From contig JAQUCZ010000001.1 in the NCBI GenBank assembly GCA_028685945.1, forward strand, positions 1-38,441: 38,441 nucleotides of DNA. Reading direction: 5' to 3'. The notes below the pieces were generated by a model that was given only the letters and a program-made list of their open reading frames with translations, searched no databases and was not told where the DNA came from. Below, piece after piece: positions 1,928-35,084 of this stretch (position 1 is the stretch's first letter; every line of letters starts with the position of its first letter). A program made the position numbers and the translations under genes. The DNA is from Sulfurimonadaceae bacterium. GTDB lineage: Bacteria; Campylobacterota; Campylobacteria; Campylobacterales; Sulfurimonadaceae.

Positions 1928-4643
1928 AATTATTTTTTTTCTATTAACATTGGTTGTTGCGCTGCAGGCTTCTTTGGATAAAAAGAGCGCGATTGTTTAC
2001 TACGGAGATCAAATCTCTTATCCGACGGTCGGTATTCACGATTACATTATCGTTGAACCGAGAAATACGAATGTTTATACACACGGCTTTTCTCTTTATA
2101 AAAAAAAGATATACGCCTATGTAAGTGTTTTTGAGGTCGAAAAAGGGGATGCAACGATTGATTCTTCGTGGGTGATCGCCCAAAATGAAGCATGGGGAAG
2201 TGTCGTACTCGATTTACGAAACGAAGCATATCGGAAGTATCTTTTGGAAAAAATAGAAGCGTTACATGCCAAAGGATTTGAAAACTTTTTTTTTGACACG
2301 CTTGATTCTTACATGCTCTATGCAAAAACGGCGGAACAAAAAGAGAGTTTTGAAAAAAGTTTAGCAGATTTTATCCAAGAGGTGCATCGACGTTTCAGCA
2401 ATGCCAAGATAGTGCTCAACAGAGGATTCGAAATCATCGATTCCGTACACTCTTGTATCGACGCCGTTTTATTCGAGTCGTATCACTACGGATTGGGAGA
2501 AGGGGCGCAAGGGTACAAAAAGGTTTCAAACGGGGATAAGGAGTGGCTTGATTATCATATCGCGAAGATCCAGCGTTACGGGCTTGATGTTATTTCGGTG
2601 GAGTATTTGCCGCAAGATCAAATGGAAAAAATCGATGAGGCGATAGATGTTATAGAAGCCAAAGGGATGATCCCTTACATAAGCGAGAGAGAACTCGATA
2701 TTTACGGAAAGTCTTCTAAAAATGGATTGAAAAGGGAGGTGTTCGTTTTAATTGATGAGAGTCAAAAAGATAGAATGGTTCAAGGAGCGCATCAGTATCT
2801 TTCGATGCCTTTGGAATATCTGGGATATATTCCGAAACTTTACGACTTGACCCAAGGGTTGCCCGATGTGCGCTACATGAAACATTATGCGGGTGTGGTT
2901 ATTTGGCTTGAGAATTTTACTACGGACCCCGACGGATTGCGCCGATGGCTTGAAGAGATCAAAAAATCCGGAATAAAGATCGTATTTATGAATAATTTCG
3001 GTTTTCTCCCAACTCTTACCAATATGAAGTTTTTAGAGATAGATGCATTACAAAAAAATGAAGATATAGATACGCCGAGCAAACTCGTACATTATGTAAA
3101 ACAGACGGGTTTTGAGATAGAAGCTTCGCCAAATTCACTCGAGACGCTTTACTTGCAACCGCGTAATGCAAAAGCTCTTTTACGTTATGAAGATACACAA
3201 GGGCAATATACGGTACCGGCGGCCATTACGTCTTGGGGAGGGTATGCGCTTGATGAAGCGTTAATGGTACAGATTCAGCAAGATAGTTTGTGGGTGATAG
3301 ATCCGTTTTGGTTTTTACAAGAAGCACTTGAGTTAAAACCCTTAGCCGTACCCGACGTAACGACGCACAACGGCAGAAGGATATTTTTTGCCCATGTCGA
3401 CGGCGACGGGATCATGAGCAGGGCAGAGTTTAATCCCGGATTACTTGCGGGTGAAGTGATTGTAGAGGAGATTTTGAAACCTTATAAAGTGCCCCATTCC
3501 ATTTCGTTTATCGGTGCAGAGATTAACCCCGAGGGGCTATACCCCGATCTTTCGCCCAGACTCTTGGAGATAGTCAAAAAGACGTACGCACTCGAAAACG
3601 TAGAAGCCGCGACACATACCTATACCCATCCGTTTTATTGGGGCAAAATAGAGGATGCTACTCTCGATGCATCTTACAGATTGGACGTAAAAGGGTATTC
3701 GTTTTCGTATGAGAGAGAAATATTAGGCTCTTTGGAGGAGATAAATACAAAATTTTTACCCTCGAAAAAAGAGCATGCCAAGACAATTTATTGGAGTGGC
3801 ATGTGCGATCCAAGAGAGGATGTACTAGAGTTCGTTTACAAACACGGCATACTGAACATTAACGGAGGCGATACGATTATTACAAACAGTTCCCCGTGGC
3901 TTTCATTGGTTGCTCCTTTGGGACTTGCACGCGGAGAATACTATCAAATATATACGGGAGCGCAGAATGAAAATATCTATACGAATAATTGGCAGGGTCC
4001 TTATTGGGGATTTAAGAAGGTAGTCCAGACGTTTGAACGTACCGAACATCCTAGACGTTTAAAACCTATTAATATCTATTATCACCTTTATGCAGGAACT
4101 AAAACGGCATCTTTGCGCGCTTTAAAATACGCCTTTGATTGGGCTCTGAAGCAGGAAATATACCCGATTTACGCTTCGGAATATATACCCAAAGTAATGG
4201 ATTTTTATACCCTTTCTTTGTCCAATGAAGAGGAGACATGGTTACTCGAAGGTGCAAGGGATATTAAAACCGTGCGGTTTGCGAAAAAGGTTTTTGCGGA
4301 TATGGAACGTTCCGATGGAGTGATCGGTGCTAAAGCAACCTCCAATCAAACATATTTTCATCTTGATCATGGGCAGAGCCAACGTATCGTACTGCGATCA
4401 AGCGCTCCTCAAGAGGAAGTGTATCTGCTTGATGCAAATGTGGCTCTTGAGAAAGTGTTTCAGGAAAAAGGGAAAATAACATACCGTTTTGCAGGGCATG
4501 TGCCCGCGGCGATGCGTTGGCATGTACCTCAAAAATGTTACGTGACTACGCTACAAGATGCCGAGATAACAAGAAGTTCGGATCTACTGACGTTAACGTT
4601 TTCAAACGCAAAAGAGGGAGTACTTGATGTTACGTGCAGATGA
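1905..4643 (+). CDS. pelA: PelA-like bifunctional glycoside hydrolase / deacetylase
   Basis: Signal peptide (likely start ATG 1905, MKRLCCNK; ORF track starts at 1884); N-terminal TIM-barrel hydrolase motifs FFFDTLDSY, NRGFE, LFES; deacetylase motifs AHVDGDG and HTYTHPFYW. Confidence 0.88.
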   Translation: MKRLCCNKIIFFLLTLVVALQASLDKKSAIVYYGDQISYPTVGIHDYIIVEPRNTNVYTHGFSLYKKKIYAYVSVFEVEKGDATIDSSWVIAQNEAWGSVVLDLRNEAYRKYLLEKIEALHAKGFENFFFDTLDSYMLYAKTAEQKESFEKSLADFIQEVHRRFSNAKIVLNRGFEIIDSVHSCIDAVLFESYHYGLGEGAQGYKKVSNGDKEWLDYHIAKIQRYGLDVISVEYLPQDQMEKIDEAIDVIEAKGMIPYISERELDIYGKSSKNGLKREVFVLIDESQKDRMVQGAHQYLSMPLEYLGYIPKLYDLTQGLPDVRYMKHYAGVVIWLENFTTDPDGLRRWLEEIKKSGIKIVFMNNFGFLPTLTNMKFLEIDALQKNEDIDTPSKLVHYVKQTGFEIEASPNSLETLYLQPRNAKALLRYEDTQGQYTVPAAITSWGGYALDEALMVQIQQDSLWVIDPFWFLQEALELKPLAVPDVTTHNGRRIFFAHVDGDGIMSRAEFNPGLLAGEVIVEEILKPYKVPHSISFIGAEINPEGLYPDLSPRLLEIVKKTYALENVEAATHTYTHPFYWGKIEDATLDASYRLDVKGYSFSYEREILGSLEEINTKFLPSKKEHAKTIYWSGMCDPREDVLEFVYKHGILNINGGDTIITNSSPWLSLVAPLGLARGEYYQIYTGAQNENIYTNNWQGPYWGFKKVVQTFERTEHPRRLKPINIYYHLYAGTKTASLRALKYAFDWALKQEIYPIYASEYIPKVMDFYTLSLSNEEETWLLEGARDIKTVRFAKKVFADMERSDGVIGAKATSNQTYFHLDHGQSQRIVLRSSAPQEEVYLLDANVALEKVFQEKGKITYRFAGHVPAAMRWHVPQKCYVTTLQDAEITRSSDLLTLTFSNAKEGVLDVTCR

Positions 4644-5639
4644 AGAAAGACTCTTTGTAGCAACGTATAAAGAGATCGCAATCGTTTTTATAAGTTTCGC
4701 GATGATCTTATTTTTTCTTTATCCCAAAGATATTTTAAAAGAGAATGTTTTGACCGAAGAGAGTAACTACGATTTAAGTGTCCTGTATCTTAAAAATATG
4801 TTGCGCCACGATCCGCAAAACGAAGTTTTAATGTTGGCTTTGGCAAAAAAAGGAATAGCACTTGAAAAGAACGATCTTGCACAGCATCTGCTTGAGACAC
4901 TTTTAAACAGCGACAATCGAGAGATTCGATATGAGGCGCACGAACTCAGCTACCTTTTGACCAAGCAAACCTACCTTTTAGGTGCAAAGGAAGAATTGCA
5001 TGCGCGTTTACAAACTTTATTCGGTCAAGTTATGCTTCAATTTCACATAAAAGACAAAGTGCTTTTTTGGTATGAAGAAGCACTTTTTTTGGAACGTTTC
5101 GAAGATGCAAGAAAGTTACTCGACACACACATGCTCTCTTACGGCGAGGATATGAAAATGTTACAGATGCGTTATTATTTAGCGCAAAAAAAAGGGGAAG
5201 ATCCTCGTCCTTTTTTACATAAGTTGCAGCAAGCGGATATAGGTAATAGGGATACATGGCTTATGGCAGAGTATTATTATCTCAATGATACCAAGCGTGA
5301 TGAAGAGCTTATAGCATTTTTGAAACTACATGCCAAAGAAAATAATACATTTGAGAAATATTTGCTGGAAACGTATGTCGGCACAAATCAGTATAAAAAA
5401 GCATCTGCGTTTTATCTCCGGCGCTATATACGTACAAAACGCAAAGAGGAGCTTAAAAACGCATTGCAAACGCTGGTTGCGGGAGATCTTTTGGAAGAGG
5501 CAGTGGCATTGGCACAAAAATACGAACCCCAAGCGTTGGAAGACAAAGCTTTGAGGGAGTATTTCTTAAAGCTTTATATCAGCGCTTCGCAGACCCAAAA
5601 AGCGTCTGATTTTGCTAAAAAAATATTGGAAGCAGGGCG

Positions 5640-5643: not shown

Positions 5644-9712
<4,069 letters not shown>

Positions 9713-9729: not shown

Positions 9730-10284
9730 TTAAAAGAGGGTTGGTTCGAGCGCTTTGATTTTGTAGCTTTTTCTGTGGATCTCGCTGTAGCCGTGTTGTT
9801 TAATCAGCTCAATATGGCGTTTGGTTCCGTACCCTTTGTGCTTTTGGAGTTCGTATTGCGGGTAGTGTTTTGCAAGTGCTACGATATCGCGGTCGTGGGT
9901 CACTTTTGCCAAAATAGAAGCGGCGCTCACGGCAGCGATTTTGCCGTCTGCTTGTACCATCGTTTGAAGATTTTTGATCCCAAAAGCGGTATTGCCGTCA
10001 AACAGATACTCTTGGGCATCTAGGTTGTGCATAATATCCTCAAGTCCTCTTTTAAGGCATGTAGCGATACCGAGCGTATCGATTTGTTGCGGCGTAAACG
10101 TAACAAGGCGGTAGGAGGATTTTTGTACGATCTCCTCAAAGAGAAGTTCCCTCTTTTTTGGCGTGAGTTTTTTGGAATCGTTTAGCCCTGCAATCTCTTC
10201 GTGGAGAATGCACCCCGCCATCACCAAGTCCCCCGCCAATGGTCCGCGTCCCGCTTCGTCAATGCCGCAAAGCTTTATTGGCAT
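9730..10284 (-). CDS. rnhB: Ribonuclease HII
   Basis: GIDEAGRGPLAG, LNDSKKL, AASILAKV, HKGYGT, HRKSY. Confidence 0.96.
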   Translation of the reverse strand: MPIKLCGIDEAGRGPLAGDLVMAGCILHEEIAGLNDSKKLTPKKRELLFEEIVQKSSYRLVTFTPQQIDTLGIATCLKRGLEDIMHNLDAQEYLFDGNTAFGIKNLQTMVQADGKIAAVSAASILAKVTHDRDIVALAKHYPQYELQKHKGYGTKRHIELIKQHGYSEIHRKSYKIKALEPTLF

Positions 10285-11858
10285 GTGGCATCCCCTTGGG
10301 GCAGATAGACCTCAAACAGCGCGCCCCCGTCATAGTTGGAGGCATGGATCTCGCCGCGATGGTCGGTGATGATTTTTTTGGCAACGTTGAGCCCTATCCC
10401 CATCCCCCCTTCGGTTTTGTTGCCCGTAAAGGGCTCAAAAATATTGGAGAGAATATTTTCGTCTATCCCCCCGCCGCTGTCTTTAAAACGGATCGCTATG
10501 CGGTCGTACTCTTTTTCTATACGTATATCGAGGTAGCGTTTGTCGTAGTTTTCGACGTGCTTGAGAGCATCGAGGGCGTTGTTGATGATGATGACGAATA
10601 CCTGTTCGATCCTTTGGGGCTGGATCTTTGCGCAGTAGTTGAGTTTCTCTTTTGGCATGCCGATCTCGAAAAGTTCGTTTTGGATAAACACGGGCGCTAT
10701 ATGTTTGGCTTTGTTGTGGGTAAGGGTGAGTGCCGTAATAAGAGATGCATAAATGTTGTGGGGTTTTGGGATTTCGCTTGCCTGCGACGCCATTTCGCGC
10801 ATCGATTCGACGATGCTTGCAATACGATCGACACCGTCGAAAATGATCTTTGCATCTTCGATAAGGTAGTGTTTTTGCTTGATCGTATCGTCGATATCGT
10901 TGATATCCTGCATCATCAGTTCAAGATTGCCGCGAATGTAGGTGAGCGGCGTGTTGATCTCGTGGGTGATCCCCGCGGCGATTTTTCCGATAGTCGAGAA
11001 TTTTGCTTCCAAAAGATTCTCTTCCTCCCGTTTGCGGCGCAGTTCGATGTTTTTTTCCACCTCTTCTTGTATCCGTTTTTTCAAAAACTGCTCTTGTTGG
11101 TAGAGCTTGGTGATATCCTGACGGATGGCGATATATTCGACGATCTCGTCGTTTTCGTCCAAGATGGGAACGATAACCGAAAATTCGTAGTAGGTCTCCC
11201 CTTTTTTATTGACGTTTTGAATACGCCCTTTCCATATCTTTTTTTGGCGTATCGTCGCCCAAAGATTTTTATGGACGGCAGGGGGTGTGTCGGGGTGTTT
11301 GATGAGACGGTGGGTTTTGCCTAAAAGTTCCTCTTTAGCATAGCCCGTCATTGCACAAAAGGCATCGTTGACGTAGATGATCACCCCGTTTTTGTCGGTT
11401 TTAGTCACCGAAGAGCTAACGTCGATGGCGTTTTTGTACTCTTCAAGAAGTTTGTGTTTGTTTTTGAACTTTTTAGCCAGAAGGATTTTGTTGGCATATT
11501 TATAAAGTATGATCTCAAGGCGCGCAAGGGAGAGGGGTTTGAACAGATAACCGTCTATGCCTATATCGACCGCCTTTTCGGTGATCTCTTTTTCAAAATG
11601 GGAAGTGATAAGGATGATGGGGATATCGATACGGTTTTGTTTGATAATCTCCGACATCTCTAACCCGTCCATCATCGGCATAGTAAGGTCGGTGAGGATC
11701 AGGTCGGGTCGGTGGAGGTAGTATTGGCGTAAGCCTTCATCCCCGTTTTGGGCGATGTAAATATTTTTAAAGGAGCGCTCTTGTAAAAAAGCGGTAATCT
11801 CCTCGCGCGTTTGGGTGTCATCCTCGACAAAGAGGATCGAGATGTCGTTAAAGAGCAT
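10275..11858 (-). CDS. Cytoplasmic hybrid histidine kinase (REC-PAS-HisKA-HATPase)
   Basis: REC (VEDD, LTDLTMP, KP); PAS (YVNDAFCAMTGY..ELLG..H..IKHPD..LWATI..W.G); H-box AGITHEINTPL; N/G boxes NNALDA, DSGGGI, GMGIGL; no TM segment. Confidence 0.92.
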   Translation of the reverse strand: MLFNDISILFVEDDTQTREEITAFLQERSFKNIYIAQNGDEGLRQYYLHRPDLILTDLTMPMMDGLEMSEIIKQNRIDIPIILITSHFEKEITEKAVDIGIDGYLFKPLSLARLEIILYKYANKILLAKKFKNKHKLLEEYKNAIDVSSSVTKTDKNGVIIYVNDAFCAMTGYAKEELLGKTHRLIKHPDTPPAVHKNLWATIRQKKIWKGRIQNVNKKGETYYEFSVIVPILDENDEIVEYIAIRQDITKLYQQEQFLKKRIQEEVEKNIELRRKREEENLLEAKFSTIGKIAAGITHEINTPLTYIRGNLELMMQDINDIDDTIKQKHYLIEDAKIIFDGVDRIASIVESMREMASQASEIPKPHNIYASLITALTLTHNKAKHIAPVFIQNELFEIGMPKEKLNYCAKIQPQRIEQVFVIIINNALDALKHVENYDKRYLDIRIEKEYDRIAIRFKDSGGGIDENILSNIFEPFTGNKTEGGMGIGLNVAKKIITDHRGEIHASNYDGGALFEVYLPQGDATCQ

Positions 11859-12247: not shown

Positions 12248-13561
12248 CTAGTGAAAAAGTTTACTTGCCGCTTCGTGCATGACGATTTTGGTACGCTGTT
12301 CTACAAGTTCATCAAGGTATTTAAACACCTCGTGGCTTGCCTCTTCTATTTTGTGGATACGCTCTTCGATAATCTCTTTGGAACAAAGCACTTTATCCCC
12401 CGCACACTCTTTTGCCAAGAGGTTTGCCTGTTCGTGTACTATGGCATGCGGTCGGTCGAGTTTCGGGTAGGAAGGCATATTCGCAAAGTTCTCTTTTCCT
12501 ACGCCGCTGCTATACCATTGCCCGAGACGGCACTCTTTATGGGTCGTGCTTGCAAAGGTGTTTTCCTCTCCGAAGATAAGTGCATACACGTTGTGTTTGT
12601 AGATAACGTGGTCGATTTTTGCCAAAGAGGTGAAGATTTTATCGCTGATATATTCCACTTCGTATTTGTTGCGAGCGGAGTTTTTCTCAAACGAATTGAT
12701 CTTCGCGGCAAGCTCTTCTATTTTCGTTTTCGTGCCGATAACGATATCGTTGACGATGCTTGTGCTTGTTTGGGCTTCGTTTGTTTCTTGGAGCATCGCT
12801 TTGACTACCAGCGATATCTCTTTGGTCGCCGTTTGCGTTTTTTCGGCAAGCTTGCGCACTTCGTCCGCTACGACCGCAAAACCGCGTCCGTGTTCCCCTG
12901 CGCGCGCCGCTTCGATGGCGGCATTGAGCGCCAAAAGGTTGGTTTGGTCGGCAATATCTTGGATAAGGGTGATCACCGTCGATATCTCCGAACTTCTTTG
13001 GTTGAGCGAGTCCATCCCGTGCATGTTGTTTTGCATATGCTCACTGAGCTGATCCATATCTTTGGAAGAACCTTGAATGAGCACGAGCCCCTCGCGAGAT
13101 TCCTCGGAGATCATATTCGATTCCTCTTTCATAATTTTAAGTTCGTCAAGCATCTGCGAAAAGGTTTTTTGTGTATCGACGAGTGCTTCTTTGATAGAGC
13201 GTTGGTGCAGACCCAAAATATCGCTGTCTCTCGTGTCGCGCATATCTGTTTTGATGATGCGATAGAGCGTCGTCTGGCTTGCGGGATCTTTTTTGGAAAC
13301 CACTTTGCCGGTACAGTTTTGTACTTCGATGACCGCTTTGTTTTTTTGTAACTCTCTGATGAGTTCGCTCGGTGCTTTTATATTTTGCTCGGCAGCTTCG
13401 TTTTGGAAAACGATCGTACCGTCGCTACCTAGCACCACCAACATCTCTTCGTGGGCAAACCGTGCCGCTTCTTTGTAAAAGTCGACCTCTTTTTCAAGTT
13501 TTCGTACTTGTTCTTCTAGCCGCGCAATGCGCAACTTATCCTCTTTGTTTTGAAAAAACAT
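12248..13561 (-). CDS. Soluble methyl-accepting chemotaxis protein with C-terminal CZB domain (TlpD-like)
   Basis: [38 protein letters not shown] signalling tip; CZB motifs [24 protein letters not shown]; no TM segment. Confidence 0.92.
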
Positions 13562-20349: not shown

Positions 20350-20353
20350 TTAG

Positions 20354-22082: not shown

Positions 22083-22439
22083 ATGAATGCTAGAGTATTA
22101 AAAAGCAAAATTGCAAATCGCTTAAAGCGTAAACGTCGCGTACGTGCAAAAATATCTGGTAGTGCTACACTTCCTCGTGTTTCTGTATTCCGTTCTAATC
22201 GCTATTTGAGTGTCCAAGCTATCGATGACGCAACGTCAACGACTATCTGCGGCTTGAACTCAAAATCTACGGGTCATAAAGCTAACAAAGAGGGTGCTAC
22301 TGCTTTAGGTGCTGCATTTGCTGCAAAACTTAAAGAAGCCGGTATCGCTTCAATCGTTTTTGACCGTAACGGTTACCAATACCACGGCGTTATCGCTGCG
22401 TTTGGTGAATCTCTTCGTGCAAACGAAATTAAGTTCTAG
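22083..22439 (+). CDS. rplR: 50S ribosomal protein L18
   Basis: [20 protein letters not shown]. Confidence 0.97.
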
Positions 22440-22448
22440 GGGCTGACT

Positions 22449-22892
22449 ATGATGCAAATCAATAGAGATGAATTCGAAGAATCAATAGTTAATATTGGTC
22501 GTGTAACAAAAGTTGTAAAAGGTGGACGTCGTTTCCGTTTTACAGCACTTATCGTAGTTGGTAACAAAAAAGGTACTATCGGATACGGTGTTGGTAAAGC
22601 GAAAGAGGTTCCTGATGCAATCCGTAAAGCGGTTGACGAGGCGTTCAAAAACCTTACTACCGTAAAAATCAAAGGTACTACGATTGCACACGATATTGAG
22701 CATAAATTCAATGCAAGTCGTATCTTACTAAAACCGGCATCCGAGGGTACCGGGGTTATCGCAGGTGGAGCGGCTCGTCCGGTTCTTGAACTTGCCGGTT
22801 TCCAAGATATTCTTACAAAGTCTATCGGCTCAAACAATCCAAACACACTCGTACGTGCTACAGTTGAAGCACTGTCTCGTATTAAAGGATAG
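22449..22892 (+). CDS. rpsE: 30S ribosomal protein S5
   Basis: [22 protein letters not shown]. Confidence 0.98.
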
Positions 22893-22895
22893 AAA

Positions 22896-23294
22896 ATGGG
22901 TATTGAAAACTTAACACCTGCAGAGGGTTCGACACACAGCCGTAAACGTGTTGGACGCGGCTGCGGTTCGGGTATGGGTAAAACTTCTACGCGCGGCGGA
23001 AAAGGTCAAACTGCTCGCAGCGGTAGCAAAAGAAAAAGAAACTTCGAGGGTGGACAAACTCCGCTTGCAAGAAGATTACCGAAAATCGGTTTTAACTCTC
23101 GCGTTATGAAACCGTACATTATCAATGTCGATAAAATAACTTCTGTTGCTGAGTTGGCTGAGATCACTATGGAATCTATCCGTGGCGTTCATAAAGTTGC
23201 TCAAGTTGTAAAAAAAGTTAAATTAGTAGGTGCGAACGCAAAAGCTTTAGCATCAAAAATTAAAGACGAAAACGTTACAACAACAGGTAAATAG
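22896..23294 (+). CDS. rplO: 50S ribosomal protein L15
   Basis: [25 protein letters not shown]. Confidence 0.97.
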
Positions 23295-23296
23295 TT

Positions 23297-24559
23297 GTGA
23301 ATAAAAATCTAGTTAATAAGATACTTATTACGATAGGGTTTTTATTTATCTACCGCCTACTGGCATACGTGCCGGTTCCGGGCGTCGATACGGCTGTCAT
23401 AGCCTCTTTTTTTGATTCGCATCAATCGGATGCACTCGGTCTTTTTAACATGTTCAGCGGAAACGCCGTAGAAAGACTCTCTATAATATCTTTGGGTATT
23501 ATGCCTTACATCACCGCTTCAATCATTATGGAACTTCTTGCTGCTACTTTCCCTACTCTCGGTCAAATGAAAAAAGAGAGAGACGGTATGGTTAAATATA
23601 TGCAGATTATTCGTTACTCCACTATAGGTATTACAATCGTACAGGCAGTGGGTGTAAGCGTAGGTCTTCAAAGTTTAACCGGTCCTAGCGGCAACAGTGC
23701 TATTCTCATAGACTTCAGTACGTTTTTGACACTTTCTATCGTTTCAATGCTTGCAGGAACTATGCTTCTTATGTGGATCGGTGAGCAGATTACCCAAAGC
23801 GGTATCGGTAACGGTATATCTTTGATCATATTTGCGGGTATCGTTTCGGCGATTCCGAGTGCGATCGGTCAAGCGGTTACTATGGTGAATACGGGTGCTA
23901 TGAGCTTTATTACCGTGCTGTTTATTTTAGCACTTATCCTTGCTACGGTCGGGATAATTATCTACGTTGAGCTTGGGGAGCGTCGTATCCCTATCACGTA
24001 TGCTAAAAAGACTATTATGCAAAATCAAAACAAAAGAGTTATGAATTACATCCCGATCAAAGTAAACCTTTCAGGTGTTATCCCTGTAATCTTTGCAAGT
24101 GCGATCCTGATGTTTCCTATGACTGTTTTATCAAGTAGTTCAAACCCTACCGTACAGGCAATAGCAGACTTTTTAAATCCGAACGGGTATTTCTTTAACT
24201 TCTTAACTTTTGTATTCGTTGTTTTCTTTGCATTCTTTTATGCTTCGATCACGTTCAATGCAAAAGATATTTCGGACAATTTAAAACGTCAAGGTGGATT
24301 TATTCCCGGTATTCGTATCGGTGATGCGACAAAAGAGTTTTTGAATGAAACGGCAAGTCGATTGACTTTTACCGGTGCACTCTATTTGGGACTTGTTGCG
24401 ACATTGCCGTTTATGATTATCAAAGGGATGGGTGTCCCGTTTGTTTTCGGCGGTACAGCCGTTTTAATCGTCGTTCAGGTTGCTTTGGACACGATGAGAA
24501 AAATAGAGGCTCAGTTATATATGAGCAAATATGAAACACTAAGTGCGGTTGGTCTCTAA
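23297..24559 (+). CDS. secY: Preprotein translocase subunit SecY
   Basis: GTG start; LGIMPYITASII, GIGNGISL, GVIPVIFA, FIPGIR, GGT. Confidence 0.97.
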   Translation: MNKNLVNKILITIGFLFIYRLLAYVPVPGVDTAVIASFFDSHQSDALGLFNMFSGNAVERLSIISLGIMPYITASIIMELLAATFPTLGQMKKERDGMVKYMQIIRYSTIGITIVQAVGVSVGLQSLTGPSGNSAILIDFSTFLTLSIVSMLAGTMLLMWIGEQITQSGIGNGISLIIFAGIVSAIPSAIGQAVTMVNTGAMSFITVLFILALILATVGIIIYVELGERRIPITYAKKTIMQNQNKRVMNYIPIKVNLSGVIPVIFASAILMFPMTVLSSSSNPTVQAIADFLNPNGYFFNFLTFVFVVFFAFFYASITFNAKDISDNLKRQGGFIPGIRIGDATKEFLNETASRLTFTGALYLGLVATLPFMIIKGMGVPFVFGGTAVLIVVQVALDTMRKIEAQLYMSKYETLSAVGL

Positions 24560-24561
24560 AA

Positions 24562-25320
24562 ATGGCCATCGCGCTTAGAAAACAAGACGAAATAGAAAAA
24601 CTAAGAGCCGCCAACAAAATCGTAGGCGGCGCCTTAGAGTTGCTTCGCGAAAATACAAAAGCGGGAATTTCTTTAAAAGAGCTTGATGCTATGGCGGAGG
24701 ATTATATCCGCTCTCACGGTGCCAAACCCTCTTTTAAAGGTCTTTACGGATTTCCCAACGCCGTTTGTACCTCCCTCAATCAAGTGATTATTCACGGAAT
24801 CCCTACAGATTATATACTTCAAGAAGGCGATATTATCGGTTACGATATCGGTACGGAGCTTGATGGATATTTCGGTGATGCCGCGATCACTGCTCCCGTA
24901 GGAAAAATATCCAAAGAAGATGAAGCACTTATAGCATGTGCGAAGGATTCTCTCTATTATGCAATAGAGGTGATTGAAGAGGGGATGCGCTTTAAAGAGC
25001 TTTCGATGTTGATCGAAAACTTTATTCGCGCTCGCGGATTTGTTCCGCTTCATAGTTTTTGCGGTCACGGTATCGGGAAAAAACCTCATGAAGAACCGGA
25101 AATTCCGAATTATTTAGAGGGAAAAAATCCAAAAGCGGGTCCAAAAATGAAAAACGGAATGGTTTTTTGTATCGAGCCTATGATCTGTCAAAAAGATTCT
25201 AAGCCGATTATTTTGGAAAATAAGTGGGATGTCGTTAGTGCCGACGGTTTACGCGGTTCACACTATGAGCATACTGTTGCTATAATCAATGGTAAAGCTG
25301 AAATTTTATCTCTTGCATAG
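24562..25320 (+). CDS. map: Methionine aminopeptidase type I
   Basis: IHGIP, GYFGD, GHGIG..HEEP, IEPM, HYEHT. Confidence 0.96.
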   Translation: MAIALRKQDEIEKLRAANKIVGGALELLRENTKAGISLKELDAMAEDYIRSHGAKPSFKGLYGFPNAVCTSLNQVIIHGIPTDYILQEGDIIGYDIGTELDGYFGDAAITAPVGKISKEDEALIACAKDSLYYAIEVIEEGMRFKELSMLIENFIRARGFVPLHSFCGHGIGKKPHEEPEIPNYLEGKNPKAGPKMKNGMVFCIEPMICQKDSKPIILENKWDVVSADGLRGSHYEHTVAIINGKAEILSLA

Positions 25321-25338
25321 AGAAGTAAGGAATACTAA

Positions 25339-25557
25339 ATGGCTAAATCAGATGTTATCGAAGTTGATGGCAAGATTATAGAGGCTTTGCCTAATGCAAC
25401 TTTTCGTGTCGAGTTAGAAAACGGACATATTATTTTATGTCATATTGCAGGAAAAATGCGTATGCACTATATTAAAATATTGCCGGGTGACCGTGTTAAA
25501 CTTGAGTTAACGCCTTATTCGTTGGATAAAGGTAGAATCACTTATCGTTATAAATAA
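25339..25557 (+). CDS. infA: Translation initiation factor IF-1
   Basis: [37 protein letters not shown]. Confidence 0.98.
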
Positions 25558-25582
25558 AAAAGAGAGTTTCGCTCTCTTTTTT
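25556..25582. terminator. Bidirectional intrinsic terminator between infA and the convergent rhodanese gene
   Basis: AAAAAAGAGAG-TTTCG-CTCTCTTTTTT perfect inverted repeat with A/T tracts on both sides. Confidence 0.85.
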
Positions 25583-25590: not shown

Positions 25591-26484
25591 TTACTTCGTC
25601 TCCCATTTATAGCGGATCAGTTCGTTATTTGGATCTTCTCTCCACCCTTTGATCCCTTTTGCATAAACTTTCGTATTTGTAAATCCAAGATGTTTGTATA
25701 GCAAAAACCAGCTCCATGCGGCATCCAAAAGGTCCTCGCCGTAGATCGTAATAGTATCTTCTTCATTGAGTCCGAGACCCTCTTTGTAAAGGGTAAGAAG
25801 CGTCTCTTTATCCAATAAGGTACGGTCATTACGCAGATTATACGCAAGCGGGATATTTATGGCATGCGGGATATGACCCGTTTGGTCGCAATTTTTTGAA
25901 GGGGCAATACCGAAATAGATTTCGGGTGATCGTACGTCGAACAGAACCGTTGCATCTTCTTTGGCAAGGTCGTGCTCTATAAAAGCGTGTTTTTGCTCGT
26001 ATCGTGCGTCGCGTTCTGCGGGAGAAGGAGATTTTTCCGAGGAGATAAGCAGTTCGTTCTCAAAAGCCCATGCCAAATACCCGCCGTCTAAAATAGCGAC
26101 GTTTTCAAATCCGTAACTTATAAGTGCTAAAGCACCCAGTGATGCATTGCGAAAATCCTCTTGGGTATTTCTCGTATAAAGAACAATCGTAGAACTCGGC
26201 TTAAGAGCGAATGCGGCGAAAATTTCCTGAAGTTTCTCTTTCGGTGCCAGTGCGACATCTCCGTTTTCTCGTACGCTTAAGCGTTGTGGATCGAGATGAA
26301 GGGCGTTGGATATATGGGAGCGCTTGAAGTTTTCTTTTGAGGAGAGATCGAGTATAACAAGCTCGGGATCATCCAAAAGGTTGTAAAGATCTTTGGGCTG
26401 CACGAATCCCTCGATTGCACAAAGGGTGAGCGTGCTTAAAAAGAGTAGAAGTGTCGTTTTGAACAAATTAAAAATTCCCTGCAT
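25591..26484 (-). CDS. Exported tandem-domain rhodanese/sulfurtransferase-like protein, apparently lacking the catalytic Cys
   Basis: Signal-peptide-like N-terminus; HISNA, ILDGGYLAW, DVRS, GHIPHAINIP rhodanese motifs; active-site loop reads IYGEDLLDA. Confidence 0.8.
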   Translation of the reverse strand: MQGIFNLFKTTLLLFLSTLTLCAIEGFVQPKDLYNLLDDPELVILDLSSKENFKRSHISNALHLDPQRLSVRENGDVALAPKEKLQEIFAAFALKPSSTIVLYTRNTQEDFRNASLGALALISYGFENVAILDGGYLAWAFENELLISSEKSPSPAERDARYEQKHAFIEHDLAKEDATVLFDVRSPEIYFGIAPSKNCDQTGHIPHAINIPLAYNLRNDRTLLDKETLLTLYKEGLGLNEEDTITIYGEDLLDAAWSWFLLYKHLGFTNTKVYAKGIKGWREDPNNELIRYKWETK

Positions 26485-26761: not shown

Positions 26762-26944
26762 AGAAATCCTTTGTGTTGTATCGCATGTTTTCTGAGTTAA
26801 AACGTCATTATAGTAGGTTGCATATTGGTTTTTGTTTAAGCAGATAGGATCACTTGGCATGTCGTATTTTTAATTTAAAATTACGAGAAGAATATAGAAA
26901 TCTAAGTTAACACAAATGTAACGCAAAATAAATATAATTTTATT

Positions 26945-27030: not shown

Positions 27031-27677
27031 CTTCTCTTTAAAATCTCTATTTTTTTACGTATCGCTTCTTTTTCGCTCGTAGATTCGTTCAACTCCTCTA
27101 GTACGCCCAACCAATACAACACCGATTTTTTATACCCGTAAAACGATGCGCTCTCTAAAATATTTTCCGCTTGCGCGATACTCAGATGCTCTTTTAGAAG
27201 TGCCGCGCCGATCAGTTTGCTGCTGATGGGAGCATCTTCCAAAGATGCAAATGCCAAAGCGTATTCTTTTTTTTGCATATGCTCGGCGAAGCTGTTGTAA
27301 GGTCGGGGTAAGAGGGAAGGTTCAATCGCCTCCGTATTGTTTTGTAAAAGAGTATAGTAGTTTTTAAGGGAGGGATCGCTTGTAAACTCCGCGATCTCTT
27401 GGTACTCACTACACTTATCGGGACGACCGACCGAGATACGTAGAGCACACATGCCAAGGTATATGCGAGCCAAACTCTCAAAATCTCCGCCCGCCTTGGC
27501 ATGTGCGATTGCACGTTTGAGATCGCCTGTGGCAACGGCATCGTGCCCCGCTAAAAAGTTCTTCGTATAGGACTCGAACGCATTGGCGCTTTGGATTTGC
27601 CACTGATTGGGGGGAAGTTGCATAGAACACCCGCTCCCAAGAAGAAGAATAAAGGCTAGAAGAGAGAAAAGTTTCAT
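27027..27677 (-). CDS. Lipoprotein with helical/TPR-like repeats, last gene of the MCE operon
   Basis: Lipobox LLLGSGC; overlaps the MCE gene stop. Confidence 0.75.
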   Translation of the reverse strand: MKLFSLLAFILLLGSGCSMQLPPNQWQIQSANAFESYTKNFLAGHDAVATGDLKRAIAHAKAGGDFESLARIYLGMCALRISVGRPDKCSEYQEIAEFTSDPSLKNYYTLLQNNTEAIEPSLLPRPYNSFAEHMQKKEYALAFASLEDAPISSKLIGAALLKEHLSIAQAENILESASFYGYKKSVLYWLGVLEELNESTSEKEAIRKKIEILKRR

Positions 27678-28609: not shown

Positions 28610-29067
28610 AGATCGCCTTTGTAGTGGGATTGGTTTGTAAGGTTGTCGAGTATTATAATATTTTTTTGCTCTTTGTTTAAGAGAACAAGTTTTTCAAGAA
28701 CCGGTTCGATGCGGGCTAGTTTTTTGATGAGGAAAAAAGGGGTTACGATAAAAATCACCTCCTCTTTTGCCATCATCGCGCGAATAACCATGACGTAAAA
28801 AACCTCCAAAGAGGTGCATTGGTTAAGACGGTTCAGCCCTATGTGTTCTAGGTCGATCAGCCGCAAAGATTCTATGGCATGTGCCTGTGCCTCTTGGGTG
28901 GGAAGCAGTTCGTGCACCTCTTTGATGAGCGCAATATTCTCAAGCATATTGAGGTTTGAGATCAAAGGGGTGTCTCCGGAGATAAGGGAATAATCTTGCT
29001 CGTTTGCAAGAAAATCGTCTATCTCTTTGTAAGAAGCGAAAAGTTTTACAGTGATTGCAGCACTAAT
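28591..29067 (-). CDS. Degenerate ABC-ATPase-like (MlaF-like) protein; start uncertain (TTG 28965 or ATT 29067)
   Basis: LISNLNMLENIAL matches the post-Q-loop segment of ABC ATPases; no Walker A; LSGG and Walker B positions altered; lies between the permease and MCE genes. Confidence 0.6.
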   Translation of the reverse strand: MSAAITVKLFASYKEIDDFLANEQDYSLISGDTPLISNLNMLENIALIKEVHELLPTQEAQAHAIESLRLIDLEHIGLNRLNQCTSLEVFYVMVIRAMMAKEEVIFIVTPFFLIKKLARIEPVLEKLVLLNKEQKNIIILDNLTNQSHYKGDLCNIIK

Positions 29068-29834: not shown

Positions 29835-29956
29835 CTAAAAACCGTTTGCAGAGAAAAAATAGCACATGCCAAAGAGAAAAAAACGAAACGGCGTAAAAAG
29901 AGAGGAGAAAGCCTTTTTGTCGGAGTAAGGGTAAAAAGGGAGGCACAAGCAAGCAT
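29831..29956 (-). CDS. Candidate 41-aa small protein heading the MCE operon (not in ORF track)
   Basis: MLACASLFTLTPTKRLSPLFLRRFVFFSLACAIFSLQTVFR; SD AAGGA 6 nt upstream; ATGA overlap with the permease start; TATAAT at 29988-93. Confidence 0.5.
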   Translation of the reverse strand: MLACASLFTLTPTKRLSPLFLRRFVFFSLACAIFSLQTVFR

Positions 29957-30740: not shown

Positions 30741-31589
30741 TTAGCCTTTGAGGTAGATTCCCGTTTCTTTAACCTCGATTTGCCCCTTTTCTTGGAGAGT
30801 CGTGAGGGTGCGTTTAAAATCTTTTTTGCTCATGCCAAACACCTCTTGGATCAACTCGGGTGCGCTTTTGTAGTTGTAGGGGAGAATCCCTTTGTTGGCA
30901 TGTAAAAGTTCTAGAACTTTTTGGGCGGCGGATTTTGTTTTGGCGCCCCCGATTTTTCTTAGGCTCAGATCGATCCCTCCGTCTTTGCGGATGTTTTTGA
31001 CGTAGGCGGTTTTTTGATCCCCTATGGAGAGTTTTTCAAATATTTCGTTGTGAAACATCAGCCCCTCGTAGCGATCCTCGACGATACATTTAAACCCCAG
31101 CGGCGTTTTGTCGATGATGAGCGCCTTGACCTCTTGGTGGGGTTTGAGTCCTTTTGGTTTTTTGTCGAGGTATTTGGAAAACTTCTCCGTTCCCGCGAGG
31201 CGGTGGGTCATCTCGTCGTACACGACGCGTAAAAATTTCCTCTCCCCGATTTGAAACGGTGCTTTTTGAAACATTCTAGGGACAAACAAATCTTTTGGAA
31301 GCCCCCAGTTCACAAACGCGCCGAATTTCGTGGTATCGACCACCTCGAAAAAGCCGAATTGATCGAGCATCGCCGTGGGCATAAGGGTGGTAGCGACAAG
31401 CCTGTCTTCGGAGTCGGTGTACAAAAACACCTCTACTAAATCGCCTACCTTCATGGCAGGGGTTACGTAGGCTTTGGGAAGGAGCACGTCTTTGTCGTCT
31501 TGTGCTTTTAAAAAAACGCCGTGAGGGGTATCGCGGTCGATAAGAAGGGTGTTGCGCTCGCCTAAAACGAGGTGGGCATTTTGTTGCAT
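30741..31589 (-). CDS. CvfB/YitL-like S1 RNA-binding domain protein
   Basis: VLLPK, VFLYTDSEDRLVAT, FGAFVNWGLPKDLFVP, RKDGGIDLSL, FGMSKKDFKR winged helix. Confidence 0.9.
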   Translation of the reverse strand: MQQNAHLVLGERNTLLIDRDTPHGVFLKAQDDKDVLLPKAYVTPAMKVGDLVEVFLYTDSEDRLVATTLMPTAMLDQFGFFEVVDTTKFGAFVNWGLPKDLFVPRMFQKAPFQIGERKFLRVVYDEMTHRLAGTEKFSKYLDKKPKGLKPHQEVKALIIDKTPLGFKCIVEDRYEGLMFHNEIFEKLSIGDQKTAYVKNIRKDGGIDLSLRKIGGAKTKSAAQKVLELLHANKGILPYNYKSAPELIQEVFGMSKKDFKRTLTTLQEKGQIEVKETGIYLKG

Positions 31590-31630: not shown

Positions 31631-31696
31631 ATTATATCCACTATCTTGGCATGTTGAAAATGGCAGCACGAAGAGGTAACGAAACTTTGATACAAT
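31631..31696. promoter_or_regulatory. Divergent promoters for the cvfB-like gene and pyk
   Basis: Minus strand gaTATAAT at 31631-36; plus strand TGaTACAAT at 31688-96. Confidence 0.55.
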
Positions 31697-31722: not shown

Positions 31723-33198
31723 ATGAAAAAAAGAACGAAAATCGTTGCAACGGTGGGGCCTGCAAGCGAGAGCACCGAGATTTTGGTAGAGCTTATCGAA
31801 GCGGGGGTAAATGTTTTTCGTCTTAATTTCTCTCACGGAACCTACGCATACCACGAAACGGTTTTGCAAAATATCCGCGAAGCTATGCAAAAAACGGGAA
31901 AAATCGTAGGGGTGCTGCAAGATATAAGCGGTCCGAAAATCCGCATCGGCGAGCTAGAACACAGTTTCGAGCTTGAAAAAGGGGACGTAATCGAGTTTAC
32001 CAAAGAGCAGATCGTGGGGTACAAGGCGGTGGAGGGGCACTACAGGGTGCATCTCAATCAAAGTGCCATTCTCGATAAACTCCGCGTGGGGGAGTATATC
32101 TACCTTTACGACGGGATTATCCGTGCGAAAGTGACCCAAAAAAGCGAAAACTCCGACGAGGTGTTTGCACAGGTGGAAAACAGCGGTATCCTTAGCTCCA
32201 AAAAAGGGGTGAATTTCCCCAATACCCGACTCGATTTCGACGTACTTACCGACAAAGATAAAGCCGACATCGAGTGGGGCGTAGTAAACGGGGTCGATTT
32301 TATGGCGATTTCGTTTGTGCAAAATGCCAAAGATATGCTCCATGCCAGAGCTTTGGTGGAGAAGTTCGGCGGCAGACAGATGCTTATTGCCAAGATCGAG
32401 AAATTTGAAGCGATCGAAGAGATCGATGCGATTTTAGAAGCAAGCGACGGTATTATGGTTGCACGGGGAGATTTGGGGATCGAGGTGCCTTACTACGAGG
32501 TGCCAAATATCCAAAAGATGCTTATAGCCAAAGCAAACGCCGCATCCAAACCCGTCATCACTGCGACGCAGATGCTCCTTTCTATGACGGGTGCGACCCG
32601 TGCCACGCGTGCCGAGATCAGCGACATCGCCAATGCGGTGCTTGACGGTACCGACGCCGTGATGCTTTCAGAAGAGAGTGCCGTGGGGAAATACCCCGTT
32701 TTGGCGGTAGAGACGATGTTTGAGACGATTCGCGAAACCGAAAAACAGTACGACAACTACAAATTCGGCATCTACCCGTACTCCGACGCCGCCAATGCTA
32801 TCGATGAATCTGCCGTGCGCCTTGCAAAAGTGCTCGACGTCGAAGCGATTCTCACCCTCACCAGTTCGGGCAATTCCGCAAAAAAAATAGCAAAATACCG
32901 CCCCGCACGCCCCATTTTGGCAATCACCCACGACGAAACGGTACGGCGTCAGCTCACCCTCTCATGGGGTGTCGTGCCGATCTTTTCGGTGCAAAAAAGC
33001 TCTTTGCCCCGTATTTTGCAAAACGTGATGCAAAAAGGGCTCGATGAGGGAATCCTTGACATAAACAAAGGGTACATCCTCACCGCAGGCGATCCTACGG
33101 GGATCAGCGGCTCTACCAATATGATCCGCTATCTAAGACGCTACGAGATGGAGATGTTTTTGAACCAAAAATGCGATTACGAAGGGGCGCCGCTGTAA
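31723..33198 (+). CDS. pyk: Pyruvate kinase
   Basis: RTKIVATVGPAS, RLNFSHG, GPKIRIG, IAKIE, MVARGDLG, ATQML, TRAE, DAVMLS. Confidence 0.97.
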   Translation: MKKRTKIVATVGPASESTEILVELIEAGVNVFRLNFSHGTYAYHETVLQNIREAMQKTGKIVGVLQDISGPKIRIGELEHSFELEKGDVIEFTKEQIVGYKAVEGHYRVHLNQSAILDKLRVGEYIYLYDGIIRAKVTQKSENSDEVFAQVENSGILSSKKGVNFPNTRLDFDVLTDKDKADIEWGVVNGVDFMAISFVQNAKDMLHARALVEKFGGRQMLIAKIEKFEAIEEIDAILEASDGIMVARGDLGIEVPYYEVPNIQKMLIAKANAASKPVITATQMLLSMTGATRATRAEISDIANAVLDGTDAVMLSEESAVGKYPVLAVETMFETIRETEKQYDNYKFGIYPYSDAANAIDESAVRLAKVLDVEAILTLTSSGNSAKKIAKYRPARPILAITHDETVRRQLTLSWGVVPIFSVQKSSLPRILQNVMQKGLDEGILDINKGYILTAGDPTGISGSTNMIRYLRRYEMEMFLNQKCDYEGAPL

Positions 33199-33309
33199 TT
33201 CTTGGCATGTAGCATATGAAAATGCTTAAACTTTTTACTTTACAAAACTGCTAAGGGGAGAAAAAGCACAAAGCGATACCATAGCGAAAAAATTAAAAGG
33301 AAAGAACAT

Positions 33310-33794: not shown

Positions 33795-33829
33795 TCTTGG
33801 CATGTAAAAAAAAACTTTACATGCCAAGA
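33795..33829. terminator. 14-bp perfect hairpin built from two inverted CTTGGCATGT motifs just downstream of the radical SAM gene
   Basis: TCTTGGCATGTAAA-7 nt-TTTACATGCCAAGA, 4 nt past the stop at 33834; no clear U-tract, so terminator function is uncertain. Confidence 0.55.
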
Positions 33830-33833: not shown

Positions 33834-35084
33834 CTACACCAAAAACTCCAACCCCAATTTCTGCGTATAACTAAAAAGCATCTCCCTTTCAAAATCGTTG
33901 TTGGTCGCGTATTCATACCCAAAACACTCTCGCCACAAACTGTGCTCTTCCATGCAAAGATAGAAAAATACCTTGGCATGCCACGGCGCAAAACTTTCGT
34001 AGGCATGTGCGAACATCTCTTTTTTTCTCTCAAGCGGGTAAGATGTTTTGCCGCTTGCATCCGCGTGGGGCATTTGGGTTATTTTCGTGTGAAAATCGCG
34101 CGAACGCAACTGCTTGATAACGGGTTTTATAAAGGTGAGGGTGCCCAAACTAACAAGTGCCGCTTCGCTTGGATCAAACATCTCCAAAAGCGTTGCGTAC
34201 ACCTCTGCATACTCCTCAAGATAGTTTTCGTATACGACGATGGGGTGGAAATGAAACCCCACTTTCACTCCTTTGTCGGCAACTTTACGCGCGGCTCTCA
34301 GCCGTTTTTCGAGCGACGCGGTGAGGTGTTCTTCGTTTTGGATGATGGTCGGTGTGTTGAGACTCCATGTGCAGAGGATATTTTTCGGTACCTCGTTTTG
34401 GAGAAAATAGCTTACGTTGTCCGATTTGGTTTTAAACTCCAAAATTACGTTGGGGTATTTGCGTGCAAAATCAAAGAGCGCATCCAAAACCCCCTCGCGA
34501 TTGCCCCACATAAGCGAATCGGAACTCTGCCCCGTGCCGATGTGGTAGGTTTTGTTCGGGTCTAGGTCGAGGTTTAAGAGTTTTTCCTTAAATCCGCTAT
34601 CAAAGGTGATGGTGTTTTGGTTGTAAAAACTCTGAATCGAGCAGTAGGAACAGTCAAAACCGCAGCTCTCGACCGCATCGAGGGTGAGCAGGTTGCAGCA
34701 GCGCGTCTTTTCGCTTGCCACGGGGCAAAGCCCCAGCCCGAACCCCTCTTTGGGCTCTGTTTTAAAGGTGTATTTCTGCTCTTTGGCAACGATTTTTGGG
34801 GTAAACGTTTTGTAAGAGTTTGGCATGTTGCGCAGATTTTCGTACGCTTCGCGCAGACGTTTTAAAACAACCCTTTTGTCGGCATGTTCCGCAAAATAAT
34901 CGCAGATGCTCCCCTCTTGCCACAGCGTAATATCGCGCGCCATATCGACGAGCTGTTTTATCTCTTGATGGGAAAACCTGTATTCGCAAGCCTTGGCATG
35001 TAAGAACGATTGTTCCTCTTGCGTGAGTTTGGTAAAAAACGTATTTTGGATCGATCGGTTGAATTTTTCTTCGTAAGTTTGCAT
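33834..35084 (-). CDS. Radical SAM protein, spore photoproduct lyase-like
   Basis: CGFDCSYC (CxxxCxxC), IGTGQSSDSL, LEFKTKS, WSLN, GFHFHP, YLCME. Confidence 0.85.
   Translation of the reverse strand: MQTYEEKFNRSIQNTFFTKLTQEEQSFLHAKACEYRFSHQEIKQLVDMARDITLWQEGSICDYFAEHADKRVVLKRLREAYENLRNMPNSYKTFTPKIVAKEQKYTFKTEPKEGFGLGLCPVASEKTRCCNLLTLDAVESCGFDCSYCSIQSFYNQNTITFDSGFKEKLLNLDLDPNKTYHIGTGQSSDSLMWGNREGVLDALFDFARKYPNVILEFKTKSDNVSYFLQNEVPKNILCTWSLNTPTIIQNEEHLTASLEKRLRAARKVADKGVKVGFHFHPIVVYENYLEEYAEVYATLLEMFDPSEAALVSLGTLTFIKPVIKQLRSRDFHTKITQMPHADASGKTSYPLERKKEMFAHAYESFAPWHAKVFFYLCMEEHSLWRECFGYEYATNNDFEREMLFSYTQKLGLEFLV

Follow-up and report, generated by a model that had tools for sequence, protein, structure and literature searches.

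We have analysed a 38,441-nucleotide stretch of DNA (hereafter the window; contig JAQUCZ010000001.1 of assembly GCA_028685945.1, positions 1 to 38,441) from a Sulfurimonadaceae bacterium, together with the genome it belongs to and its relatives, and we have found that the seven-base word TGGCATG is scattered through them at a density far above expectation. Homologous proteins and word-bearing records point, by their names, to a Sulfurimonas-type member of this family. The word is real, strong and, as far as we have searched, undescribed. Its distribution suggests that it is probably a self-DNA tag of the uptake-sequence type, read by the uptake machine during natural transformation. By genomic anatomy, this genome would resemble those carrying the DNA uptake sequences (DUS) of Neisseriaceae or the uptake signal sequences (USS) of Pasteurellaceae, although we do not file it as a member of either class because the uptake reading rests on sequence, no receptor was found and the regular spacing of DUS and USS is not seen.

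The window's genome (G000; 1.485 Mb in 267 contigs, 45% GC, 68% complete) contains 1,796 copies of TGGCATG, compared with 123 expected under an order-2 and 405 under an order-4 Markov model. The top 8-mer of this genome is TGGCATGT (1,248 copies vs 26 expected, order-2 Markov), and related 9- to 12-mers top their own k-mer rankings. The resulting densities, 1.21/kb for the 7-mer and 0.84/kb for the 8-mer, agree with the value of about one copy per kb that the initial annotation of the window had proposed. The core is strict over seven bases, with one-off variants of the 8-mer at core positions at 0.2-2.7 times their expectation, and the flanks are soft, with YY(T/A) upstream, T-R-S-S downstream and nothing beyond 4 nt (T61/A28 at position -1, C50/T34/G14 at -2 and T70/C15/G13 at +1). 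Because of these soft flanks YTTGGCATGT, the motif first described in the window, is not a strict 10-mer: it is the form met most often, and its invariant part is the 7-mer. CATG is depleted overall (2,958 vs 4,445 expected) and scarce outside the word, RAATTY is raised only 1.2-fold (2,482 vs 2,068 expected), TACATGTA is not enriched in this genome (12 vs 13 expected) and TTGGCATGCCAA occurs only 10 times.

Most copies lie inside genes: 1,417 are coding, in all six frames, 325 are non-coding and 54 fall on gene edges. These classes come from a home-made gene caller that misses some genes, for instance comEC, and thereby inflates the non-coding share somewhat. Of the coding copies, half (714) are in the His-Ala frame. 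After codon-preserving shuffling, 136 sense and 114 antisense copies are expected, compared with 457 and 960 observed. The enrichment thus exceeds both the Markov and the codon-preserving nulls against which the initial annotation had proposed to measure it, and an origin in composition or codon bias is rejected. Furthermore, the six most enriched tripeptides of the proteome (TCQ, WHV, TCH, MAC, HAK and HMP) are all translations of the word, indicating that it has altered protein sequence; LAC is a further tripeptide by which it has reshaped the proteome.

The sites are well conserved. In 166 kb aligned to relatives with the same word (88.8% identity), 187 of 209 G000 sites are kept (89.5%), and 187 of 221 in the reverse direction, whereas retention was 52% for all 7-mers, 54% for other CATG-containing 7-mers and 38/81 for synonymous His-Ala words. 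The named loci in this alignment had been chosen for carrying an inverted pair, and conserved sites are therefore slightly favoured in it. A one-off variant is aligned with a perfect copy in 3.4% of cases, compared with 0-2.2% for 12 anagram controls, and the codon alignments indicate that sites arise by substitution, with no indels.

The copies are also unevenly placed with respect to genes, at 11.6/kb in the gaps between convergent genes vs 1.1/kb in divergent gaps. There are 85 close inverted pairs (9-30 nt apart) in G000 and 27 same-orientation pairs; 71 of the inverted pairs are non-coding, 56 lie at most 30 nt from a stop codon, head-to-head and tail-to-tail layouts are both present, and 23 of 84 convergent gaps contain one. 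In 170 kb of another genome (G180), 9 of the 10 close pairs are inverted and non-coding. Orientation along the replichores is balanced: 563 of 1,105 copies on G000 contigs of at least 5 kb are on the G-rich strand, which for this form of the word was judged on draft contigs. Taking the spread over 66 contigs into account, a 60:40 skew is excluded (P=0.0005) and 55:45 is within reach; the corresponding counts are 47/92 in G180 and 150/282 in the pooled named loci of the second form (dialect B, below). This bears out the earlier argument against Chi and FtsK-orienting polar sequences (KOPS), whose polarity is rejected at 60:40 or stronger. Spacing is random to slightly clumped, with a variance/mean of 1.16 (2 kb) and 1.19 (5 kb) once pairs are collapsed. 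In the 535 genes for which a distant orthologue is available, the density is 1.69/kb at 55-65% identity and drops to 0.56/kb at 85% identity or more, the most divergent class having 0.95/kb. No copy was found in an rRNA operon (G193) or in a 20-kb island of 32% GC (G180), the latter agreeing with the absence from islands that the initial annotation had proposed to check.

The window itself (42.6% GC) shows the same pattern. TTGGCATG is present in 25 copies, 15 on the plus and 10 on the minus strand (1.0 expected from 100 dinucleotide shuffles), TTGGCATGT in 18 and CTTGGCATGT in 11 (0.02 expected), exactly as counted before by hand; TGGCATG is found 38 times, so that the dozen or so further copies reported earlier are 13. 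No copy lies at 14,900-25,560 or 35,700-38,441, the two blocks of ribosomal-protein operons (13.4 kb, ~16 expected), which the initial annotation had left out of its density figure, and the two remaining blocks carry 20 and 18. Of the inverted pairs after stop codons also claimed there, the window has one clear non-coding case (33796-33828), and the claim holds genome-wide. This pair begins 5-7 nt beyond the stop of a minus-strand radical-SAM gene (33834-35084), with a hairpin fold of -27.4 kcal/mol (z -6.1). Independent public metagenome contigs (landfill, sediment, water) cover the hairpin region nearly unchanged, with 1 differing letter in metagenome X5 (33640-34028), 3 in X8 (33610-34190) and 7 in X2 (33641-34461), and therefore the word pattern is not an assembly artefact. 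The features of the window are the following.

1499..1505, minus: core TGGCATG
1544..1550, minus: core TGGCATG
2265..2272, minus: TTGGCATG
3774..3781, minus: TTGGCATG, in-gene inverted pair with the copy at 3797
3797..3803, plus: core TGGCATG, partner of the copy at 3774
4517..4524, plus: TTGGCATG
5329..5336, minus: TTGGCATG
6077..6084, plus: TTGGCATG
6959..6968, minus: CTTGGCATGT
7662..7669, plus: TTGGCATG
7900..7909, minus: CTTGGCATGT
8010..8016, plus: core TGGCATG
8737..8746, no single strand: TGGCATGCCA, two overlapping cores on opposite strands
9277..9283, plus: core TGGCATG
10278..10285, plus: TTGGCATG
10652..10659, plus: TTGGCATG
12442..12448, plus: core TGGCATG
13998..14007, plus: CTTGGCATGT
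14456..14462, plus: core TGGCATG
14900..25560, no strand given: S10/spc ribosomal-protein operon, 0 copies in 10.7 kb (~13 expected at the genome mean of 1.21/kb)
25860..25866, plus: core TGGCATG
26069..26076, minus: TTGGCATG
26853..26862, plus: CTTGGCATGT
27449..27458, minus: CTTGGCATGT, in-gene, with an opposite copy 46 nt away
27495..27504, plus: CTTGGCATGT
28875..28881, plus: core TGGCATG
29865..29872, minus: TTGGCATG
30831..30838, minus: TTGGCATG
30895..30902, plus: TTGGCATG
31645..31654, plus: CTTGGCATGT in a divergent-gene gap
32341..32347, minus: core TGGCATG inside the pyruvate kinase gene
33201..33210, plus: CTTGGCATGT, 2 nt past the pyruvate kinase stop
33796..33828, no single strand: inverted pair of two CTTGGCATGT copies, 17-bp hairpin with no U-tract behind
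33973..33983, no single strand: TTGGCATG overlapped by an opposite-strand core
34820..34827, plus: TTGGCATG
34992..35001, plus: CTTGGCATGT
35700..38441, no strand given: alpha operon (S13, S11, S4, RpoA), 0 copies

Beyond this genome, the word or related forms of it, which we call dialects, are abundant in other genomes of the genus, as the initial annotation had suggested looking for. Dialect A is strict TGGCATG (G000, G193 and G160): of 193 other genus genomes, 20 have at least 250 copies of TGGCATGT, and 26 have at least 100 copies at five times the control; elsewhere in the family, G247 is the only one of 159 genomes to pass this test, its own word being GGCATGTGAA. Dialect B is GGCATGTGGAA, strict over ~10 bases, and its GCATGTGGA form is present in at least 200 copies in 18 of 180 genus genomes and in 0 of 154 others. 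The word of G148 is AGCATGTGGAA. Dialect C is the palindrome YTACATGTAR (TACATGTA), with at least 200 matches in 20 of 118 genus genomes and in 21 of 106 genomes of other genera, the complete genome G041 having ~1,000 TACATGTAR matches. CATG is the common centre of A, B and C. Dialect E (GCATCTAT) has 564-974 copies in G146, G147, G185, G192 and G051 (controls 44-112); its AGATGC core is without CATG and forms nearly no inverted pairs, but at 5 of 42 columns it falls in the same register as A/B/C sites, by a null that ignores amino-acid constraint, and it is probably a further related dialect. A further word, F (TGCGTGAG), has 962 copies in G055 (control 33) and 14-26 in four other genomes, with 4 copies in priA. 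Among the first matches listed, the plus-strand counts of E in two closed genomes are 100 vs 105 and 50 vs 52 expected, which fits a lack of polarity, and those of F are 87 vs 63, an excess; F, a different asymmetric word, may be strand-skewed. In locus L060 (record JAABQD) and in L231 (G253), local repeats (CTGACAC/CTGTATC and GAGGTGGA) dominate the k-mer lists in a tandem-array-like manner.

In the rest of the order, GGCATGT stays at or below 349 copies in all of the 345 genomes scanned, which represent 23 other families; those of family f25, with ~200 copies against near-zero reversed controls, are not counted as enriched because this is 0.13/kb and without a Markov null. When all GTDB species were scanned for a 20-base inverted pair, 69 loci were found, and the records with several matches were Campylobacterota or an unclassified word-bearing assembly, except for one unrelated contig with two neighbouring matches; the named GTDB records and our G-numbered genomes come from the same collection and probably overlap. 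The 18 unrelated loci that were counted had no raised word density, nor had the viral contigs, whose 15 single hairpin matches are uninformative on phages of these hosts.

According to a FastTree phylogeny of 14 genes around comEC (21 genomes, midpoint-rooted, several with a partial gene set), dialect A is monophyletic (1.00), most of the B genomes group together in a second clade (0.96) and those with C lie in scattered positions. Since C has this scatter and also abounds in other genera, the palindrome TACATGTA is likely ancestral, that is, likely older than the asymmetric dialects. A single-gene PriA tree has weak support at deep nodes and does not group G247 with G193. The same codon positions hold each genome's own dialect, for example codons 46 and 340 of priA and 103 and 260 of panC. 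Columns carrying B also carry C in 7 of 13 cases vs 5 of 93 other CATG columns (P=4e-5), and those carrying C also carry B in 7 of 26 vs 2 of 94 (P=3e-4). From these data we tentatively propose, as a reading that could well prove wrong, that Sulfurimonadaceae have an uptake-sequence system independent of the two known ones, with five dialects or more, in which an ancestral TACATGTA was rewritten site by site into TTGGCATGT, GGCATGTGGAA, GGCATGTGAA and ATAGATGC as the receptor changed.

The uptake machine that such a tag would serve is present. In G000 we found a secretin, an AAA ATPase, T2SSE, T2SSF, ComEA, a ComF-like protein, DprA and ComEC, as well as two FimT-like pilins (the FimT label being our reading) and, by motif label, RecA, so that the competence genes which the initial annotation had named for a search are there. 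Of 163 genus genomes, 159 have ComEC, whether or not the word was detected in them. In Campylobacter jejuni, a homologous machine takes up only RAATTY-methylated DNA and the pilin-like Cj0683, encoded ahead of priA, is required to start uptake (PMC10046745). A pilin is encoded upstream of priA in 31 of the 33 family genomes with a priA match, the priA locus of the incomplete G000 (68%) not having been recovered. A homologue search with this pilin gave no Campylobacter name among the 120 matches listed of 1,196, and its equivalence to Cj0683 is for that reason drawn from gene order alone. Three tip-type minor pilins and a large adhesin encoded next to recG were seen in 4 genomes. In G041 (locus L135, C1:422000-441900) there is a pilus cluster of 30% GC with a secretin, ATPases, minor pilins and a large adhesin, whose proteins are 28-54% identical to those of G000 genes; since G041 has 15 pilin matches, two such pilus systems may coexist in some genomes.

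None of the pilins could be singled out as the receptor. The extra FimT-like pilin (C98) was rejected as dialect determinant, with a near copy in 20 other genus genomes, 10 of them without A, B or C, and none found in 6 strong dialect-B genomes. The universal FimT-like pilin (25 sequences) and the priA-adjacent pilin (31 sequences) do not group by dialect in the alignments and the one tree inspected, and their net charge is mostly neutral or acidic.

Some genes of DNA uptake and recombination are themselves rich in the word. For dialects A, B and C, respectively, comEC has 14, 17 and 20 copies vs 2.4, 3.2 and 2.3 expected, and recG has 5, 4 and 4 vs 1.4, 1.0 and 0.85; priA has 83 vs 17.6 over 20 genomes. 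These counts include kin, which are not independent, and each palindromic site enters them twice, once per strand, in the observed as in the expected number. When distinct columns are counted instead (A, B, C), comEC has 7, 3 and 7 and priA 2, 7 and 6, whereas equally divergent neighbours (a penicillin-binding protein gene, M23 and c3) have 0-1. The panC gene is also raised, which argues against a general rule for genome-maintenance genes.

According to the uptake reading, a sequence-specific component of the machine would preferentially bind word-bearing fragments, and these would recombine into the chromosome more often. Because of this, point mutations creating the word would spread and those destroying it would be overwritten where the protein tolerates it. 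Copies would accordingly gather in tolerant frames (His-Ala foremost), in hairpins at gene ends and in genes of weaker conservation, and would stay out of ribosomal operons, rRNA and an island. If the reader came to prefer another form, the kept core would acquire new flanks, and dialects would result. The pattern appears to require some process that favours word-bearing DNA at each passage, of which biased uptake plus recombination is the documented case. The density of ~1/kb, the lack of polarity, the non-coding excess, the inverted pairs at stop codons, the frame bias, the origin by substitution and the lineage dialects are all hallmarks of DUS and USS, and to this extent the uptake signal proposed by the initial annotation stands; regular spacing and an excess of perfect over one-off copies are not found for dialect A.

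Several observations weigh against an uptake function. Regular spacing was sought in G000 and not seen, and perfect copies of dialect A do not outnumber one-off copies (1,248 vs 1,271 for the 8-mer, 465 vs 716 for the 10-mer), although in dialect B, over ~10 bases in 500 kb, they do so as in DUS and USS (202 vs 121). The 15 G000 genes that we take from their motifs to be repair or recombination genes have 27 copies vs 23.2 expected, with no bias; recA, radA and dprA have none, and neither have the secretin operon and comEA of G000. Genomes without a detected word retain comEC and pilins, and of the three pilin candidates none follows the dialects or is strongly basic, so that no receptor was found. 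A mild skew (167/280, P=0.0015) is seen in one set of 11 named dialect-A loci. The sharing of A columns is not significant (A to C, 4/19 vs 3/26, P=0.43; A to B, 3/19 vs 0/26, P=0.07), a shared amino-acid tolerance may contribute to the positional sharing, and the commonest dialect is palindromic, unlike known DUS and USS. Finally, a TTTT run follows only 19 of the 56 stop-proximal pairs, and for this reason the transcription termination predicted at inverted pairs is graded no higher than likely.

As an alternative, the reader could be an intracellular enzyme of recombination or repair, the word being an AddAB site of the Chi kind but unpolarised, or a site for another helicase or nuclease, and spreading by biased recombination. 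We consider this unlikely, even if the evidence for drive and conservation fits it equally well, priA and recG are dense in copies and the search for a surface receptor gave none. Polarity is usual in Chi sites, which are also shorter than ~10 bases; the word has no replichore polarity and dialect B is strict over about that length, with the perfect copies outnumbering the one-off ones as given above. Moreover, inverted pairs at gene ends are a described trait of DUS and USS. A Chi-like effect is, on the other hand, one of the two mechanisms named for the HIP1 palindrome of cyanobacteria (10.1101/2024.09.10.611283).

We also give a low probability to a methylation-dependent mark, in which a solitary methyltransferase would modify the CATG core and the reader would need the methylated word, as in the RAATTY and HIP1 systems. 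Uptake in C. jejuni requires methylated RAATTY (PMC10046745) and methylated HIP1 aids transformation (10.1101/2024.09.10.611283); A, B and C share a CATG centre, the palindromic dialect is HIP1-like and G000 is incomplete. However, when six methyltransferase families (D12, N6/N4, C5, EcoRI-like, MmeI and Eco57I) were searched in 3-5 genomes each, no family was common to the carriers, and a shared word-linked enzyme was rejected. D12 was found in 1 of 5 carrier genomes, N6/N4 in 3 of 5, C5 in 3 of 5 and the EcoRI-like family, in which we presume CtsM of C. jejuni to belong, in 0 of 5. The complete G041 lacks these four families, yet it has the dialect-C matches given above. The MmeI-type gene of G000 (C249) has no full match in G193 or G160, and a 504-aa enzyme of G041 has no match in G000. 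Besides, CATG is scarce outside the word and the in-register word of E has no CATG. The CATG-methyltransferase alternative raised by the initial annotation is thus weakened. A 5-methylcytosine survey of Sulfurimonas denitrificans lists CGCG, CCNGG, GATC and CCGG and, in the part available, no CATG-centred motif, but it detects this modification only, in part of CATG sites only (PMC8112702).

Two further observations concern modification and restriction. Locus L269:1981-3684 (G000:C233) is a low-GC block with an N6/N4 methyltransferase gene containing internal stops and an intact DpnI-family gene. In addition, G000 strongly avoids GGCC, CCGG, CCWGG and AGATCT, which suggests that several restriction systems act, or once acted, on this genome.

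Another improbable explanation is that the word is bound by a nucleoid or chromosome-organising protein of high abundance, every copy being under direct selection. A strict core with soft flanks looks protein-bound, the sites are conserved and the two-half layout centred on CATG would suit a dimer; against this, spacing is near random except for the short inverted pairs, the word is absent from 10-kb operons, protein sequence has been changed at more than 1,400 places, the word is exchanged or lost between close relatives, and enrichment in comEC and priA is not predicted. We regard as very improbable indeed that the copies are remains of a mobile repeat (a repetitive extragenic palindrome, REP, or a miniature inverted-repeat transposable element, MITE), a terminator consensus, a sigma-54 half-site or a codon or composition effect: inverted pairs after genes are REP-like and TGGCA resembles the -24 box of the sigma-54 -24/-12 consensus, but the copies are mostly coding and in all six frames, they show no indels at their origin, conserved length, conserved flank past 4 nt or insertion signature, codon shuffles yield a small fraction of the observed count, and the -12 element TTGC lies 4 nt downstream in 7 of 1,796 copies, with TGGCACG not enriched.

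Uptake sequences have been described from two families only (PMC1626085; 10.1101/2025.10.24.684340). The Neisseriaceae DUS (GCCGTCTGAA and its dialects; receptor ComP) are alike in density (~1/kb), presence in both orientations, non-coding excess, gene-end inverted pairs, frame bias, dialects around a short conserved core and lack of a long flank motif (10.1101/2025.10.24.684340; PMC1626085). They differ in that the present word is unrelated in sequence and phylum, has 7 strict bases in dialect A and is palindromic in one dialect, no ComP-like basic pilin was found, and the repair genes of G000, taken together, carry no excess of copies. With the Pasteurellaceae USS (AAGTGCGGT / ACAAGCGGT; predicted receptor ComN/PpdA) it shares the genomic distribution, the clade variants, and sites that arise by substitution and persist between species (PMC1626085; PMC12616744), whereas it has no AT-rich flanking tracts or over-regular spacing and the FimT-like pilins do not covary with dialect. 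C. jejuni, with its methylated RAATTY and CtsM, is of the same order and has a homologous, self-selective machine (secretin, ATPases, ComE, ComEC and a pilin before priA; PMC10046745); TGGCATG is longer than RAATTY, asymmetric and without a common methyltransferase, RAATTY itself being barely raised in G000. HIP1 (GCGATCGC) and the alternative iterated palindromes of cyanobacteria also have hundreds of copies per Mb, a strict core and lineage variants (PMC4390886) and are linked to transformation (10.1101/2024.09.10.611283), and dialect C is a palindromic octamer too. Dialects A and B, however, are non-palindromic and form inverted pairs, and HIP1 accompanies GATC and CGATCG methyltransferases, no such partner having been found here; a HIP1-type palindrome was rejected for G000, being present only as dialect C in relatives. 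Chi and KOPS are likewise short, asymmetric and over-represented, but the present word is unpolarised, paired at gene ends and denser.

The window contains other elements that do not carry this argument. A non-coding repeat of ~100-147 bp at 33554-33700, without the word, has 26 further full or partial copies in G000 (69-97% identity) and shows a depth spike and loose ends in four metagenomes; it is probably of MITE or REP type. The sequence at 33731-33770 is a short GC-rich repeat resembling a hairpin, with three weak copies elsewhere. At 27016-27099, one X2 contig is near-identical up to ~27016 and ~16% divergent beyond, a break that resembles a recombination boundary and may also be an assembly chimera. 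Finally, the genes at 39-9673 (glycosyltransferase, membrane exporter, glycoside-hydrolase-like, TPR-rich and UDP-glucose-epimerase-like), with one weak NCBIfam match only, form a cluster that we would liken to pel-type exopolysaccharide loci.

In the literature searched, from which most subscription papers and supplementary k-mer tables fell outside, we found, among the matches listed, no description of this word, of uptake sequences in Sulfurimonas or Campylobacterota, or of highly iterated palindromes in Epsilonproteobacteria. If the uptake reading is true, this would be the third uptake-sequence system after those of Neisseria and Haemophilus, in abundant free-living sulfur oxidisers of landfill, sediment and biofilm; self-selective DNA uptake would not be confined to mucosal bacteria, and gene-flow barriers between environmental species would be possible. 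The dialect series at shared codon positions links a palindromic HIP1-like word to asymmetric DUS-like words, and the function of iterated palindromes becomes testable in a genus with cultured members. Should the five-dialect proposal be correct, uptake sequences and iterated palindromes would be a single phenomenon in two forms, and the swap of receptor would be mappable within one genus. The word would also give access to the step at which the Campylobacterales uptake machine selects DNA, and would make Sulfurimonas genetics simpler to set up. Even without a role in uptake, a 7-base word that has rewritten more than 1,400 coding positions and has a retention of ~90% demands a reader not yet named.

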